Assembly: GCA_964016885.1 (NCBI GenBank)
Contig: OZ024744.1
Location: 60,574,001 to 60,638,000 of the forward strand
Direction of reading: 5' to 3'
DNA: 64,000 nt
Source of the DNA: Eledone cirrhosa
Lineage: Eukaryota
The translations under genes and the position numbers were made by a program. Shown here one piece after another: positions 20,941 to 36,174 of the stretch (position 1 is its first letter; each line of letters starts with the position of its first letter). Below the pieces are notes generated by a model, which had not been told where the DNA came from, made no database searches, and saw only the letters and a program-made list of their open reading frames with translations.

Positions 20941-23900
20941 TTAACACATAAAAATGACCAACATGCTGAAGGACTTAAAAACATAGCAACATCAAGAGTG
21001 TATTATATTCCTTCCATCTACATGATCAGATCAGTAATCTGAACAAAATACAGCTCATTTGGATAACCAACATCTATCAAATTAATTGTCATGGTAAGTA
21101 TTTCATTGCAATTAAATGTAAGAATTGATTTTTATGCATGAAACACAATGAAACCAAATTGAGGCATTGCGTCAAAACAAGTATATATCTTATCAAAACT
21201 ACAAATAACCCACCACATGAAGAATCAATCAACTCTTTTTACTTATTAAAATACTAACACCAGTCCATCCACAGGTTAAACCCACAGCTGCTGTTGACAC
21301 TCACTTTCAACTGAGTAACCATACACTGAAGAGTTTTGCTAAAGAATACATGCTGCTCAGTTTGAGAATCAACTCAACATTACAATCATGAGACCAAAAC
21401 CCTAACCCTGCGTGAATTCCCATGCTCTTGGAATATTAGCCTCCTAATTGTGGAGAACGGTTTCAGATTTTGTTTTCAGGAATCATTTGATGGATAAGGA
21501 AGAAGTTTTCCTTAAACCAGAGACCCAAGTGCATTACCTGTGCCAGAGGTTTAGCCCTTTCGATATATTGTCAATAAAAGATACTGCTTATAATTTTTTT
21601 AATAGTAATATAGCTATTTTACAATTCAACTGTTTGAAACATAACTCAATGATTTTTACATAAAATCATGATTGAAGCTTTTTAGATTAACATTTTAAGA
21701 GAGAAGCAAAAGCAGAGTTGTATATACAGACTCTAAACCATATATTTTATCTTATCCACCACACTATAACTTTCTAGTAACCCCGAGAAGAATATCAACC
21801 CTAAGTTTGACAGGACCTATAAAGGTAATGGATTTTGCACACTAATAATCTCTTATTTTAGAAACCATTATTTTTCACCATTGTCAAAATTCAGATTTGT
21901 TTTTGTTGCATAGTGTCAAGAATTAGAATAATAGACACAATAAGCACCTTATTTACAGCCATCAATGTCACAGGCTAATATTTAGAATGTCAATTTAAGT
22001 GAAACTTTTTTTTTTTTGTAGTGATTTATAAGGAAAATTCAACATGTCTTTTTGTAGGAAAGAGACTGACTCAGTAAACAGGTTAACTTTTTATAACTGT
22101 AGCAAATCATTCAATATATTTCAATAATGAAAGGAGATATAAAATATAATAAAATAACTCGGACACAAAAGGAAAACCAAATGAAACACCTTTATTTCAC
22201 TTGCATACCAATGACAAATTAAAAATTTATGGATCCAAGGAATTCTCCAAAAATAGTATAATAAAATTACTTGTATTCACCAATGTTAAATTACTAAAGT
22301 AATAATCAGACATATTAAAGCTCTAAGACTATATTATGTAAATAATTAAATCATTAACTTTATATATATATATATATATATATATATATATATTAGTATA
22401 TGATAGATGTATATATATATATATATATATATATATATGAAACAATACATGGCACATATATGATACATGATAAATATGATATATTTATATATAATATATA
22501 CAGTATATGATAGATGTATATGAAACAATACATGGTACATATATGATACATGAGATATATATATATATATATATATATACATATATAAGGCTAATAAGGC
22601 TAATTAAAAAGGCAGGGGCTAGTAAAGATGAGATGTGTAGATCTAATCTGATTGCTTCAGAAAGAAGTAAAAGATTAGTAAGAGAGAAAGAAGGAAAGAG
22701 GAAGAAATTGTTTGCATGTTATGTCCACCCACCCCTCCCATCTCAAGGATTATTTTGGTGAATTATAGAATAGAATTGTTTGGAAATTTGGTAAAAAGTT
22801 ACCAGTAGAAGCTATTGCAATAACAAGGAATGTATTATTTCTTCTACAAGATGTAATAATTAGTGCAGTAGTATGAATCCTGCCAGCACCACAAAATCAA
22901 TTTCTAAATATATTGCTATTTTATATGGGGGATGGGTCTTTCTCATCTCAAATTTTGTTTTCATGAGGGCCAGCCAGTCAGGAGATACCACTTGATATAG
23001 ATATTTAAAAAAAAAAAAAAAAAAAAAAAAAAAAAAGATATGTAGATAAATAGCAATATATAGCCCTGCCTTGCTGCCATTTAAAAGAGAATATTGCTAT
23101 TTCCAACAAATTCTATTGCGAGGAGAAAAGGGAGGGGAGCATAATTAAAACTTCAATAAATTGCCAAGCTTTTTCATGCTACTGAGGAATTTTCCGTTAT
23201 GAGACAACATTACAATACTAATACAATTACTTTTACATAAAGCATTTACAAGTTAATAATAATTGCTGACCAAAACCTAAGAATTTAACATGGTGAAAAC
23301 TTAGTATCATCACTTACAATATGAGGAACTGGTATATCATTACAATATACATAATTTTTTAATTTTTATTTTTTACAAAAATTGAACAAAAACTAGGGAA
23401 TGGCAAAATATAAAAGCACATAATGTGCATGTCATTCACACCAAAATACAAAACTGGTCAACTGAACAAAGCGACCTCAACTCTGGCCAAAAAGGTGTGA
23501 AAAAATAGGAACTCTAAAACTGAGAATCTTGTAATCATTTTAATATATATATATATATTTTAAATAAATTTCTTCAGATAAGTCTTTCAAACCAGCAAAA
23601 AATATTAATTTTAAATGCCAGGCCTTAGATGGTGCTGCTGCTGTTGATATTTTTATTTTTTATTTTCATTTTGCTGGGAATCAAAATAGTTGATGGATTG
23701 ATTAGAAAAAATAACATTGCAAAATATTAAATATATAGTTGTATATGAAAAGTGTGGTGAAATAGTAAAGTATTTCAAAAATAATAAACAGATACCAAAA
23801 AAAAAAAAAAAACAAAAAAAAAAAAAAAAAAAAACACCTATGGATCTTATCAAACACACCATATTACATTTGTGCTCAGATAAAAAAAAAAAAAAAAGGG

Positions 23901-24940
23901 AACGCAGCTAATTTGATATGGCTAAAATGGCAGACTTCACAACCTTCTCTAACAGATGGAAGTCACAATTAAATAAATAAAAAATATACATTTTAAATAT
24001 ATATATATATATATATATATATATATATATATAAGCCTCCCCTTCCACCCATCCAAGCAAATTCCCTGATTAAAAAAGGAACATAGGTGTGTATCAGCAG
24101 TGAGCAAGTACCAGGCAGTGACCTTAACTAATTTGTTTTTTGTTTTGTTTTTAAAAAAAAAATTAAATAAATAAATTGCCATATAGATATATATAAAAAT
24201 TACAAAAATAAAAACTTTCAAAAAACAAAAGGAAAAAGAATCCAGGCTAAATCTATTATTGTAAATATAAGTTTAAAAATAAAAAAAATTATATTTTCCA
24301 GTGTGTGTGTGCGTACGCATGTACACACACAAACATAACATAAATCCATTCCAGCCCCTAGAGATTTCAAGAGCAAAATGTCAAATGGTGTATTTACAGA
24401 AAAGATCCACTGCTTACAGTAAGTCTTCAAATATATCACTGCCCAGAACAAAGCACAAACTGGAAAGCAGTATAAGTTCTAATAAAAAATAAGAGGAAAA
24501 AAAAACTTCCTCAAAAAAAAAAAAAAAAAAAAAAAAAAAAAAAAGCTTTTTTTCTTTCATTTTTCTTTTTTAAAATGTTTCAAAATAAAGTTTCATCAAT
24601 AGGGAGAAAAATATGAAAAAAGTAAAAAATAATTTCTTAGGGAGAGGAGGAAGAGAAAAAATACTAATTTTTTTTTGTTTAATTATCAGTGTAAATATAA
24701 GAGAAATGCTGAGGATGCTTGCATATCTAATGAGATGTGGATTTAATAACATTGTTCCTGTAATACATGTTAAGCACCAACAGGAAAAGAGAAGTTCCCC
24801 AGGACCGATTAAGAAAAATATTTTTTTTTTTTTTTTTTTTTTTACAGCTACAGACAAAGTCTGTCTGCTTTTCACCCCTCCTAGCCTGCTGCAGCCATTT
24901 TCATAACTCCACAAGTCTTGATAGATTTAACAGCTTGTTT

Positions 24941-26062
24941 TATATATATATATATATATATTGTATATATATATGTATATATATATATTGTATATATATA
25001 TGTATATATATATATTGTATATATATATATATATATATGTATATATATATATATATATGTATATATATATATATATATGTATATATATGTGTATATATAT
25101 ATATATATATATTTATATATATATATATACATATATACATAATATACATATATACATAATATACACATATATATATACATATACATATATACATAATATA
25201 CACATATATATATACATATATACATAATATACATATATATACATATATATATATATACATATATATATATACATATATATACATATATATATATATATTA
25301 TATATATTATATATATATATATGTATGTATATATATATATATATATATATATATATATGTATATACATATATATATTATATATATATATGTATATACATA
25401 TATATATATACATATATACATAATATACATATACATATATACATAATATACATATATATATATATATATACACATATATATATATATACATATATATACA
25501 TATATATACATATATATACATATATTATATATATTATATATATATATATATATATATATATGTATATATATATATATATATATGTATATATATATATGTA
25601 TATATACATATATATATATGTATATATATATATATGTATATATGTATATATATATATATATGTATATATATATGTATATATATATATATATATATATATA
25701 TGTATATATGTATATATATGTATATATGTATATATATGTATATATGTATATATATGTATATATATATATGTATATATATATATATATGTATATATATATA
25801 TATATGTATATATATATATATGTATGTATATATATATGTATGTATATATATATGTATATATATATATATATGTATATATATGTGTATATATATATATGTG
25901 TATATATATATATGTATATATATATATATATATATGTATTTATATATGTGTGTATATATATATATATATATATATATATGTATTTATATATGTGTGTATA
26001 TATATATATATATATATATATATATATATATATATATATATATGTGTGTGTGTGTGTGTGCA
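24941..26062. repeat. Compound (TA)n microsatellite with TG/CA interruptions
   Basis: Directly visible; source of the YIYI ORFs. Confidence 0.97.
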
Positions 26063-34336: not shown

Positions 34337-35444
34337 AATATATATATATATATATATATATATATATATATATATATATATATATATATATATATATATA
34401 TGTATGTATGTGTGTGTGTGTGTGTGTGTGTGTGTGTGTGTGTGTGTGTGTGTGTGTGTGTGTGTGTGTGTGTGTGTGTGTGTGTGTGTGTGTGTGTGTA
34501 TACACATACATCATATATATATATATATACATCCATCATAAGCATATATATATATATATATATACATACATCATATATATATATATACATACATCATATA
34601 TACATACATACATCATATATATATATATAAATACATCATATATACATACATACATCATATATATATACATACATCATATATATATATATAAATACATCAT
34701 ATATATATATATAAATACATCATATATATATATATACATCATATATATATATATATATCATATATATACATATATATCATATATATATACATACATCATA
34801 TATATATATATATATATACATACATCCATCATATATATATACATACATCATATATATATATACATACATCATATATATATATATATATGATGTATATATA
34901 TACATCATATATATATATATACATCATATATATATATATACATCATATATATATATACATACATCATATATATATATACATACATCATATATATATACAT
35001 ACATCATATATATATACATACATCATATATATATAATAATGAAATTATTGTGTAAAGTGCTCAGGTGCACTACAACTCGTCAAAGGTGTATGTATAGTAC
35101 ATAGAATAATACACAAATGTCAGGGAAGTACATATATACATACATCATATATATATATATACATACATACATCATATATATACATATATATATATATATA
35201 TATATTATATATACATCATATATATATATACATACATCATATATATCATATATATATTATACACATACATACATCATATATATATATATATATATATATA
35301 TACACACACACATACATCATATATACACACACACACACACACACATCATATATATATACACACATACATCATATATATATACATACACATATATATATAT
35401 TCACAAACAGCATATATATATATATATTCACATACATACATATA
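34337..35444. repeat. (TA)n-(TG)n-(CATCA(TA)n) compound array with a ~100 bp unique island at 35034-35131
   Basis: Directly visible. Confidence 0.95.
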
Positions 35445-35522
35445 CAGGGTGTCTCCAAAAACGTATACATACTTTGATTAGAATGCTGTTGAAGTGTGTA
35501 TGCACTTTTGGGGGACACCCTG
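35445..35522. mobile_element. 78-bp Tc1/mariner-type MITE
   Basis: TA duplicated at 35443-35444 and 35523-35524. ~30-bp imperfect TIRs cagggtgtctccaaaa.../...ttttgggggacaccctg. Confidence 0.8.
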
Positions 35523-36174
35523 TATGTATATGTGTGTGTGTGTATATACACACACACACACATCTATATATGTGGGTGTATGTATATGTATGCACACACA
35601 CACACACACACACAACCAAACCAAATTGGTTCAAATCCATACTTGACATATTTCCATCGTATCAATAGGATTGAAAATACAGATTAACATTTAATATACA
35701 CCAATTTTTCCTTTATTCTTTTTAAATAAATTTCAAAGATGTCTAAAATGGAGGGAAATAGATGAAAGCAGAAAAAAAAAGAAGGAAGATAAGATGTAAA
35801 ATAAATGATTCAATACTGGGAGGAAAATATATATTTTTTTCGAATTGTACAAATTTAATGTGATCTTTTTTTTCACTGTTTTTTGTTTTTTGTTTTTTTT
35901 GGGGGGGGTTTTGTTAACTTTGGTACTGTTTTTAATAGCGAAAAGCCACCACAAAACAATTTAAATAGTGACAGCATTAATTCAGAGGCAAAAAGAAGAT
36001 ACAAAACACTGATTTGACAGTTTCTCAAACAGCCCAAAAACAAAATACTAGTTGCTGTAAAAACTAGCAGTACCAAGGCTCATTTTAATATAACTGAAAT
36101 TTGTATAAATAATCATTGGTGGAGGAAGGGGAGTTGTGGGGGGGGAATAAATGGGTTAACGAAATATAGATGAT

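Follow-up and report, generated by a model that had tools for sequence, protein, structure and literature searches.

How far does the 3′ UTR of mei-P26 extend in an octopod? In the 64,000-nt stretch of Eledone cirrhosa DNA analysed here (the window; contig OZ024744.1, positions 60,574,001 to 60,638,000), a mei-P26 gene on the minus strand is followed by a block of about 14 kb, at 22175-36174, for which the original prediction was a giant 3′ UTR echoing that of the fly gene. From comparison with related loci, we consider it likely that mei-P26 has a ~14-kb 3′ UTR isoform with a predicted end just past an AATAAA at 22196. In its longest isoform, the UTR would span ~14.0 kb (22170-36174, minus strand), as suggested by a repeat-free gap, ordered conserved elements and an excess of TTTATT. 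Distances marked + are counted from the stop codon.

The mei-P26 ortholog and the sequence behind its stop codon

The gene is an ortholog of mei-P26, within the mei-P26 subfamily of TRIM-NHL proteins, an identity that is borne out by NHL phmmer scores and six RNA-binding residues. The last coding exon (36175-36483, minus strand; stop codon TAG at 36177-36175) has its best phmmer match to the NHL domain of fly Mei-P26 (7nyq; E = 7e-54), with Brat reaching only 3e-32, and is 100% identical over its length to Octopus vulgaris and Argonauta proteins. A tblastn exon map places three upstream NHL exons with AG/GT ends (39048-38888, 38780-38592 and 37411-37260, minus strand), and more mei-P26 exons further upstream, out to 61380; the 269-aa frame open across the NHL exons is identical to Octopus proteins at 268 of 269 residues. 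The NHL domain is far nearer to fly Mei-P26 than to Brat, NHL-2, TRIM71 or TRIM2/3, and the O. vulgaris protein that the window NHL matches at 268/269 residues scores E = 3e-153 for Mei-P26 (versus 2e-63). The RNA-binding residues N970, Y999, R1017, R1150, K1172 and R1175 of Mei-P26 (PMC9070667) are all identical in the alignment, with numbering inferred as chain position plus 905, by which the named residue fell in place in six cases out of six. The O. vulgaris protein also has a B-box over the cut-off and a RING slightly under it; its residues 1-175 have no tblastn match in the window. Room downstream of mei-P26 is limited by a convergent ETF-ubiquinone oxidoreductase gene, whose last exon (Pfam Fer4_ETF_QO) lies at 13659-13821 on the plus strand.

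The loss of dispersed repeats over ~14 kb past the stop, as originally described, is complete: none of the 43 merged repeat intervals of the window falls in 22175-36174. Of the surrounding gap (21691-36516), 8.8 kb is DNA other than simple repeat, compared with 1.8 kb for the next longest gap. The Poisson probability of an empty gap of this size is 3e-6 to 7e-5, varying with the rate used, for a region picked post hoc and for families detectable by being repeated within the window only. Reversed-sequence controls for repeat detection gave no matches, and a domain search confirmed that two ORFs of the window encode reverse transcriptase and endonuclease domains. The companion statement that repeats saturate the introns holds for 1-13.8 kb and 40.3-50.9 kb, which are ~45% covered (blastn), but not for the last introns and 50.9-64 kb, at ~13%.

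Conserved elements and the distal poly(A) signal

An unbiased test for shared 10-mers points to the sense strand of the block. Six of its 4,707 sense 10-mers are common to at least three of five comparison groups, compared with 0 of 4,707 antisense, 0 of 19,396 in introns and 0 of 5,738 in intergenic DNA; the six derive from only two elements. Five elements occur in clam locus L004, and four in clam locus L009, in the same order as in the octopod. The conserved elements nearest the stop are an 8mer seed match to miR-279 (27911-27918, minus strand, +8257; seed as tabulated for snail miRNAs, PMC7328434) and one to miR-124 (27876-27883, minus strand, +8292; 8mer as defined in PMC2330160). The miR-124 8mer is the sole one in the window, counting both strands, is one of two 8-mers common to all five groups, and lies in a 15-17 nt context shared with clams. 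A miR-279 site precedes a miR-124 site by 25-51 nt behind mei-P26 in 23 of 80 related loci, and in none antisense; these loci represent four lineages (two of clams, L003, and one group of clitellate-like worms). The pair arose in one of 1500 shuffles of the block.

Further downstream is a small hairpin (27063-27080, minus strand, +9097) with a 5-6 bp stem and a CCUWUU loop, the 5′ side of which is a miR-281-5p seed match. It is present in 11/80 loci, among them clams and worms, and the same loop formed in all eight folds; 84% of alignment cells are paired, with a compensatory change at one of six consensus pairs. Taken by itself, the octopod hairpin is weak (z = -1.2), and the hairpin was found in none of the 20 loci of the largest worm group. 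Rfam yielded no match at gathering score in the window, no tRNA gene was found, and eight weak E-value matches in 26900-28000 are all far under gathering scores. A 7mer-m8 match to miR-219 (26975-26981, minus strand, +9194) occupies a corresponding position in clam loci L004, L005 and L009, and is missing from L003 and from nearly all worm loci. A 10-nt element (23397-23406, minus strand, +12769) is common to both clam lineages, in order (L004 +3341, L009 +4951); it is weaker, since an identical 10-mer also occurs in controls. The seed matches are sense-strand 8mers or 7mers conserved above background, and miR-124, miR-279, miR-219 and miR-153 are all listed for O. vulgaris, a relative of the window species. 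For miR-124 of octopus, "broad expression in neuronal tissues" has been described (PMC9699675). Our literature search found no paper tying miR-279 or miR-124 to mei-P26.

The original prediction placed the end of the block at an AATAAA with a GU-rich element, and conservation supports this as the predicted end. The signal (22196-22191) sits in a conserved terminal 25-mer (22184-22208, minus strand) followed by a GU/U-rich tract, and a 7mer-A1 match to miR-153 directly precedes it within the 25-mer. When 25-mer contexts were compared with those of 110 AATAAA found downstream of the gene in 80 loci (211 kb in total), the terminal 25-mer matched clam L004 (+4616-4640) at 24 of 25 positions, and the next best of the 68 window contexts reached 19/25. 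The match comes from one clam lineage, L004. The L009 contig runs out at +7110 with no match up to that point, and the 25-mer is not shared by worm loci. The distal AATAAA also ranks first of the 68 minus-strand AATAAA of the window when these are scored, crudely, by downstream U+G, and past the matching clam 25-mer GC rises from 0.28 to 0.41 and CpG o/e from 0.37 to 0.98. Upstream of it are 15 sense AATAAA, which are not depleted (9 versus 8.9 expected in non-repeat DNA). The first (35712-35717, +458), a candidate proximal site, has U-rich sequence downstream and no conservation that we could find; other internal candidates on the minus strand are at 34284-34289 (+1886; downstream U+G 0.65), 30178-30183 (+5992; rank 3/68 by downstream U+G) and 30893.

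Spacing differs between the octopod and its relatives. From the stop to +8.2 kb, we found no conserved, ordered element in comparison with related loci. The miR-124 site is 8.3 kb past the stop here versus 1.1 and 2.0 kb in clams, and the module lies at +1.4 to +3.6 kb in worms, which also differ from one another mainly in proximal length. In clams and worms, the elements begin 0.5-3.6 kb past the stop and lie in one U-rich stretch. We infer UTR lengths of 3.6 to >7 kb in these relatives, and the comparison suggests that the UTR was probably already multi-kb in the mollusc-annelid ancestor.

Simple repeats, composition and alternative readings

The block is not free of all repeats: simple repeats and an inverted repeat lie inside it. 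Simple repeats occupy 5,691 of its 14,000 nt (41%) and include microsatellite arrays found with TRF, namely TA-type arrays of 1.1 kb (24941-26043) and 1.8 kb (28016-29821) and TA/TG arrays of 1.1 kb (34338-35427). A young 1.46-kb foldback (31442-32897), overlooked in the original reading, has 614-nt arms that are 99.3% identical (four substitutions and a 4-nt indel) and bounded by TA. The arms run on inward to a 5-nt centre (32232-32236), with 124 nt on one side that have no mirror. Array lengths and foldback structure rest on one assembly, and microsatellite arrays of 1-2 kb are hard assembly targets. A UTR that is real but shorter in the animal, due to over-expanded arrays or a foldback made in assembly, is unlikely but would be compatible with a long UTR. 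The near-identity of the arms, which begin in a (TA)15 run, fits such an artefact; the substitutions, indel and one-sided gap are atypical of a fold-back read artefact, and the arrays carry ordered internal variation.

Composition alone does not mark the UTR end, since the U-over-A skew of the block (+0.10) is intron-like (+0.06 to +0.10) and does not change abruptly at 22175. The statement that long homopolymers are mostly U on the sense strand is correct for runs of at least 12 nt (5 versus 1) and fails for runs of at least 7 nt (15 versus 19). All four long U tracts (30, 16+21, 16 and 32 nt; 23007-24544, minus strand) are within the distal 2.4 kb, and there is one A23 run on the sense strand. 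TTTATT on the sense strand is denser in the block (4.1/kb) than in introns and intergenic DNA (1.3/kb), and more frequent than in shuffles (31 versus 19±4), with introns and intergenic DNA at expectation. ELAV-like U-rich 7-mers number 19 versus 14±4 in shuffles; neither ELAV-like nor Pumilio nor Mei-P26 motifs are enriched in the block outside arrays.

It is improbable, more so than an assembly artefact, that only the distal part is in the mRNA and that splicing removes the proximal ~8 kb, arrays and foldback included, as an intron of the 3′ UTR, for a mature UTR of ~6 kb. Such an intron would fit the unconserved first 8.2 kb, the intron-like proximal skew and the position of the clam module (+1.1 to +2.0 kb). 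However, all intron-rich regions of the window gather dispersed repeats and the proximal 8 kb has none (P0 0.002-0.006), sense TTTATT outnumbers AATAAA in all five sub-blocks, and worm loci vary in proximal length likewise. Moreover, an intron well beyond a stop codon normally leads to nonsense-mediated decay.

Less probable again is that all mRNAs stop 0.5-2 kb past the stop codon, such that the distal elements are leftovers of an ancestral UTR severed by repeat expansion and the block is repeat-poor AT-rich DNA. The AATAAA at +458 and +1886, with U-rich sequence downstream, would suit short mRNAs, as would the octopus median UTR of 350-380 nt (PMC9699675). However, short motifs under no selection would not keep identities of 24/25, 15-17/17 and 16/16 between mollusc classes and between phyla, and a neutral block should collect LINE and SINE copies as its flanks do. 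Equally improbable is that the distal elements act as DNA enhancers or are part of another RNA, either a non-coding transcript made downstream or a piece of the UTR released by cleavage, perhaps by a dsRNA nuclease at the long foldback. The 8 kb of unconserved, repeat-rich sequence before them might suggest this. However, they are strand-specific seed matches and a poly(A) signal with none antisense, in clams and worms they begin 0.5-3.6 kb past the stop in one U-rich stretch, and we found no Rfam or tRNA gene.

A probable giant UTR and its predicted regulation

We favour a single unspliced transcript that would reach from the stop to the distal site. Selection on the mRNA may bar LINE and SINE insertions while slippage lengthens microsatellites. 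An ancestral UTR of several kb would have grown mostly proximally, with repeats and proximal growth roughly doubling its length. With the miR-279 and miR-124 sites and the hairpin lying 8.3 to 9.1 kb past the stop, only long isoforms would answer to those microRNAs, and a UTR of this length, filled out by simple repeats, would give microRNAs a means to adjust this cell-fate regulator. Given the UTR, the chances are roughly even that the candidate sites at +458 and +1886 produce short isoforms that lack the miRNA module, likely in gonad, and that in neurons read-through to the distal site brings repression by miR-124 and miR-279.

Paired miRNA sites in a TRIM-NHL UTR are familiar from let-7 and lin-41. 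The octopod sites are alike in being close 8mers (25-51 nt), AU-rich and kept across phyla in a TRIM-NHL gene, but here the gene is mei-P26, two different miRNAs are involved, and repression is putative. Fly Mei-P26 is reported to act on the miRNA pathway, and conserved miRNA input onto mei-P26 would suggest an old feedback loop.

The fly facts in the original prediction are correct: the extended 3′ UTR of Drosophila mei-P26 measures 18.5 kb in D. melanogaster (22 kb in D. virilis), the long form being head-specific by Northern blot and 3′-seq, with short isoforms in testis (PMC5707805, PMC9470587). The fly UTR is likewise very long, with a strong distal poly(A) signal, many internal candidates and miRNA sites (20 conserved families by TargetScan; PMC13575790). 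By contrast, the octopod UTR is predicted from conservation, and 41% of it is simple repeat, with a young foldback besides. The suggestion that extreme length is conserved or convergent is partly upheld, in that a UTR of several kb looks like the ancestral state for molluscs and annelids. Much of the 14-kb size is due to simple repeats (5.7 kb) and to the duplicated arm, so the octopod UTR, long to begin with, probably expanded to a fly-like size independently, a likeness judged by length and described features. The block also resembles ELAV/Hu-dependent neural extensions in its U-rich distal region, long U tracts and canonical distal signal, but its ELAV-like motifs are not above shuffles; octopus neural genes have the longest UTRs and stronger distal signals (PMC9699675 supplement).

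More tentatively, and with the odds against it, we propose an ancient lophotrochozoan (perhaps protostome) module comprising the 279/124 pair, a so far undescribed hexaloop hairpin that would work as an RNA switch by hiding a miR-281-5p seed match, and a poly(A) signal fixed at the end of the UTR. Octopod repeats and the new foldback would have moved it 8-14 kb downstream. Neural read-through of proximal sites would then have become the gate to control by neural miRNAs and ADAR, and the octopod would have come to a giant UTR like that of the fly along a different path.

If real, the 14-kb UTR would be about 37-fold longer than the octopus median (350-380 nt), and a second phylum would join Drosophila in having a giant mei-P26 UTR. 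To our knowledge, 3′ UTR elements alignable across a cephalopod, clams and annelids are rare. The miR-279/miR-124 pair, the unclassified hairpin and the terminal poly(A) signal are exact, testable sites. Since much of the length is microsatellite and foldback, the locus separates conserved regulatory content from raw length, a caution that UTR length alone is no proxy for regulatory complexity in cephalopods. 3′-biased single-cell data would miss mei-P26 if its annotation ends near the stop codon.

RNA editing in octopus is concentrated in introns and 3′ UTRs. On the mRNA strand, the foldback has a computed fold of -1080 kcal/mol, and its ~640-bp duplex would be a predicted ADAR editing target. 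The foldback has terminal inverted repeats and no coding capacity, as in a MITE or foldback transposon, and its two short ORFs have no Pfam match. It shares with such elements the long near-perfect arms and TA at both ends, one of which is the (TA)15 run, but it is single-copy in the window and looks like a snap-back palindrome with a one-sided central deletion.

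Conserved elements downstream of the mei-P26 stop codon

The ~14 kb that follow the mei-P26 stop codon on the minus strand (22175-36174, here "the block"; +n denotes nucleotides past the stop) are likely to be a real, undescribed 3' UTR, judging by sequence elements that are conserved across phyla. We compared the block with the downstream DNA of related mei-P26 loci, obtained by scanning metagenomes for the last exon. This gave 193 confirmed stretches; the best 80 were kept, and 58 have at least 1 kb of downstream sequence. Based on protein similarity, L004 and L005 (99% alike) and L009 are heterodont-clam-like. 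Two larger groups, with 29 and 13 loci, are referred to as clitellate-like (the worm groups) because their protein matches cluster with the leech Helobdella in a quick tree (SH-aLRT 99); L003 is lophotrochozoan-like and was placed no further.

The best blastn match between the block and all downstream DNA is the predicted distal end of the block, where a 25-mer (22184-22208) matches +4616-4640 of L004 at 24 of 25 positions (E 0.001; best reversed control 0.063). The original prediction had placed the end at the AATAAA within this 25-mer (22196-22191), and both lines of evidence agree with that placement: among the 68 AATAAA in the window this one ranks first by downstream U+G, and the other 67 reach at most 19/25 against 110 AATAAA in 211 kb of downstream DNA. 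Immediately past the matched site in L004, GC content rises from 0.28 to 0.41 and CpG observed/expected from 0.37 to 0.98. The terminal match is confined to one clam lineage (L004).

Upstream of this end, two 8mers stand on the sense strand of the block, for miR-279 at +8257 and for miR-124 at +8292 (seeds as in the PMC7328434 table; 8mers as defined in PMC2330160). A miR-279/miR-124 pair 25-51 nt apart is found in 23 of the 80 loci (L003, three clam and 19 worm loci) and in none on the antisense strand; of 1500 shuffled versions of the block, one contained such a pair. A hairpin at +9097 is present in 11 of the 80 loci, with an identical six-base loop in all eight copies folded; 84% of cells in its alignment are paired, a level reached in 8/500 shuffles, with slid controls at 47% or less. 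Three pairs are invariant, and one of six consensus pairs has a compensatory change. The 5' side of the hairpin doubles as a miR-281-5p seed match, and hence sequence constraint may account for part of its conservation. The hairpin was not found in the larger worm group, nor the miRNA pair in the smaller one; a covariance model of the hairpin returned these 11 loci and no others below E 0.9, and no second copy was found in window 17100-64000.

A miR-219 match (+9194) and a 10-mer (+12769) are common to both clam lineages. The miR-124 site, hairpin, miR-219 match, 10-mer and terminal AATAAA lie in the same order at +8292, +9097, +9194, +12769 and +13979 in the octopod and at +1132, +1590, +1650, +3341 and +4628 in L004; in L009 the first four lie at +2034, +2583, +2653 and +4951, after which the contig ends. 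We found no ordered conserved elements in the first 8.2 kb past the octopod stop. In an unbiased count, six of the block's 4,707 sense 10-mers are common to at least three of five groups (all six derive from two elements), as against none in the antisense, intron and intergenic controls. A profile search with 19 clam-conserved blocks placed the hairpin best (E 0.23), with the others at chance level. Three candidates were set aside: a 10-mer at +12966 in common with L004 is out of order and also occurs in controls; a match of +8231-8257 to worm loci (E 0.77) lies inside the control range; and the miR-153 7mer on its own is too frequent in the block (four sense, two antisense).

The 8-mer TTTTGCCA (e.g. 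23408-23401 in the block) is, like the miR-124 site, common to all five comparison groups, and no seed matching it was found in the available portion of the snail miRNA table (PMC7328434). L004 and L009 have downstream blocks of 270-480 nt in common (68-82% identical) within the first 3 to 4.5 kb past the stop. In the larger worm group (L024, L027, L034, L037, L041, L045, L050, L054, L070; +3.1 to +5.6 kb), several kb are conserved past the stop; the proximal part is variable, and the common sequence stops near an ATTAAA. Two further loci, with protein matches that lean weakly arthropod, have a miR-124 8mer past the mei-P26 stop (L062, +863; L074, +856), hinting that the site is older than lophotrochozoans.

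Gene identity, repeats and composition

The window gene is a mei-P26 ortholog, as originally predicted. Its last coding exon (36483-36175, minus strand) is much more similar to fly Mei-P26 (E 7e-54) than to Brat (3e-32), as is the full-length O. vulgaris protein (3e-153 vs 2e-63); AG/GT bounds all four NHL exons, which join into an open 269-aa frame identical at 268 of 269 positions to three Octopus proteins; and the six RNA-contact residues named in PMC9070667 are all identical in the O. vulgaris protein/Mei-P26 alignment. These matches also point to an octopod as the source animal. O. vulgaris and Argonauta proteins that are 100% identical over the last exon are annotated "brain tumor protein-like". 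Likewise, the octopod orthologs P0003, P0004, P0121 and P0123 are publicly labelled "brain tumor protein", yet are far nearer Mei-P26 than Brat. The convergent ETF-QO gene ends at 13821, and one of its introns contains a 102-nt tandem repeat (3.8 copies, 8816-9200).

Dispersed repeats do disappear 3' of the stop. Using a library of the window's own repeats (tblastn and blastn, with reversed-sequence controls that gave no matches), we found 43 merged intervals outside the block and none inside, leaving a gap of 8.8 kb of non-simple DNA, compared with 1.8 kb for the next longest. The Poisson P of 3e-6 to 7e-5 applies to a region picked post hoc, to insertions that cluster, and to families with more than one copy in the window. 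Short matches inside the block in a tblastx self-search were spurious, arising from summed statistics. A dispersed repeat of ~140-170 nt (12965-13139, 36517-36654, 55064-55217, 58315-58429, 61405-61642; 70-75% identity) has several copies no more than about 100 nt from an exon end.

The expectation that long homopolymers would be mostly U on the sense strand held at 12 nt or longer (5 U vs 1 A) and failed at 7 nt or longer (15 U vs 19 A). The U>A skew of the block (+0.10) equals that of the introns, with no step at 22175; strand skew was rejected as a 3'-end marker because of those introns and because a decayed LINE on the plus strand (17.8-19.2 kb) gives a similar signal. Sense TTTATT, a motif picked after seeing the data, occurs 31 times in the block vs 19±4 in shuffled sequence, a density of 4.1/kb where introns and intergenic DNA have 1.3/kb. 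AATAAA depletion was looked for in the block and not seen. Simple repeats make up 5,691 of its 14,000 nt and include three TA-type microsatellite arrays of 1.1-1.8 kb (24941-26043, 28016-29821, 34338-35427). These hold 22, 13 and 28 sense Pumilio-type UGUAHAUA motifs, probably a by-product of TA-repeat transitions; we discounted Pumilio motifs as evidence, since of 73 sense and 52 antisense motifs nearly all lie in TA arrays, where one transition suffices. An A23 run (24843-24821, minus strand) and A-rich sense-strand runs at ~35900 and ~27600 are expected to act as internal oligo-dT priming sites and so yield false 3' ends.

Proposed UTR extent, growth and tissue model

The simplest reading is a single UTR reaching ~22170, since strand-specific miRNA seed matches and a poly(A) signal work at the mRNA level, and since in clams and worms these elements lie 3' of the stop in a single U-rich stretch. 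A screen of sequencing runs for 22175-24930 listed no RNA run containing it; 19 presumed RNA runs shared 0.14-0.15 of it and five unclassified runs 0.21-0.89, values that weigh neither for nor against transcription. DNA sequence comparison suggests UTR lengths of 4.65 kb in L004, more than 7.1 kb in L009 and 3.6-6.7 kb in the worm group; in four of five long worm loci, the similarity stops near an ATTAAA. Subtracting simple repeats and the duplicated arm of an inverted repeat would leave about 7.7 kb of the octopod UTR. Most of its growth appears to be proximal: the stop and the miR-124 site are 8.3 kb apart in the octopod, of which 4.0 kb is non-repeat, compared with 1.1 and 2.0 kb in clams.

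Isoforms ending before +8.2 kb would lack the miR-279/miR-124 pair. Our preferred model, close to an even bet if the UTR is granted, is a switch between a long isoform in neurons and a short one in gonad. We base this on three reports: octopus miR-124 is broadly neuronal (PMC9699675, table S5), the longest octopus UTRs belong to neural genes (PMC9699675, supplement), and the fly gene has long isoforms in head and short ones in testis (PMC5707805, PMC9470587); ovary sites are also reported. The octopod UTR would work like the extended fly UTR. It is a candidate for the ELAV-dependent neural class; outside the arrays ELAV-like motifs, like Pumilio and Mei-P26 motifs, are not enriched in the block. 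In the open-access literature searched, we found neither a mollusc mei-P26 UTR nor a link of miR-124 or miR-279 to mei-P26; published octopus isoform supplements may list the UTR. The searchable PMC9712504 supplements gave no matches to Octopus accessions.

A long foldback within the block

The arms of the inverted repeat at 31442-32897 (1.46 kb) are separated by four transitions in 614 nt. Their symmetry extends further inward, as far as a 5-nt centre, except that 124 nt and 4 nt of one side have no counterpart on the other. It looks like a young snap-back palindrome made stable by a deletion on one side; its origin may be a MITE insertion, a local inverted duplication or an assembly error. 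In the MITE case, one DNA transposon would have entered the block. On the mRNA strand it folds into a ~640-bp duplex (-1080 kcal/mol), which, if transcribed, would be a likely ADAR substrate; octopus editing occurs mainly in introns and 3' UTRs (PMC9699675). The foldback holds four sense AATAAA, and its interior (31973-32220) an older three-copy tandem unit of ~80 nt, with copies 69-70% alike. The genome may contain many long foldbacks, since a second long inverted repeat sits in a mei-P26 intron (46645-47265/48320-48936, 622 nt at 97%), with further arms at 47262-47421/47863-48022 (160 nt at 97.5%).
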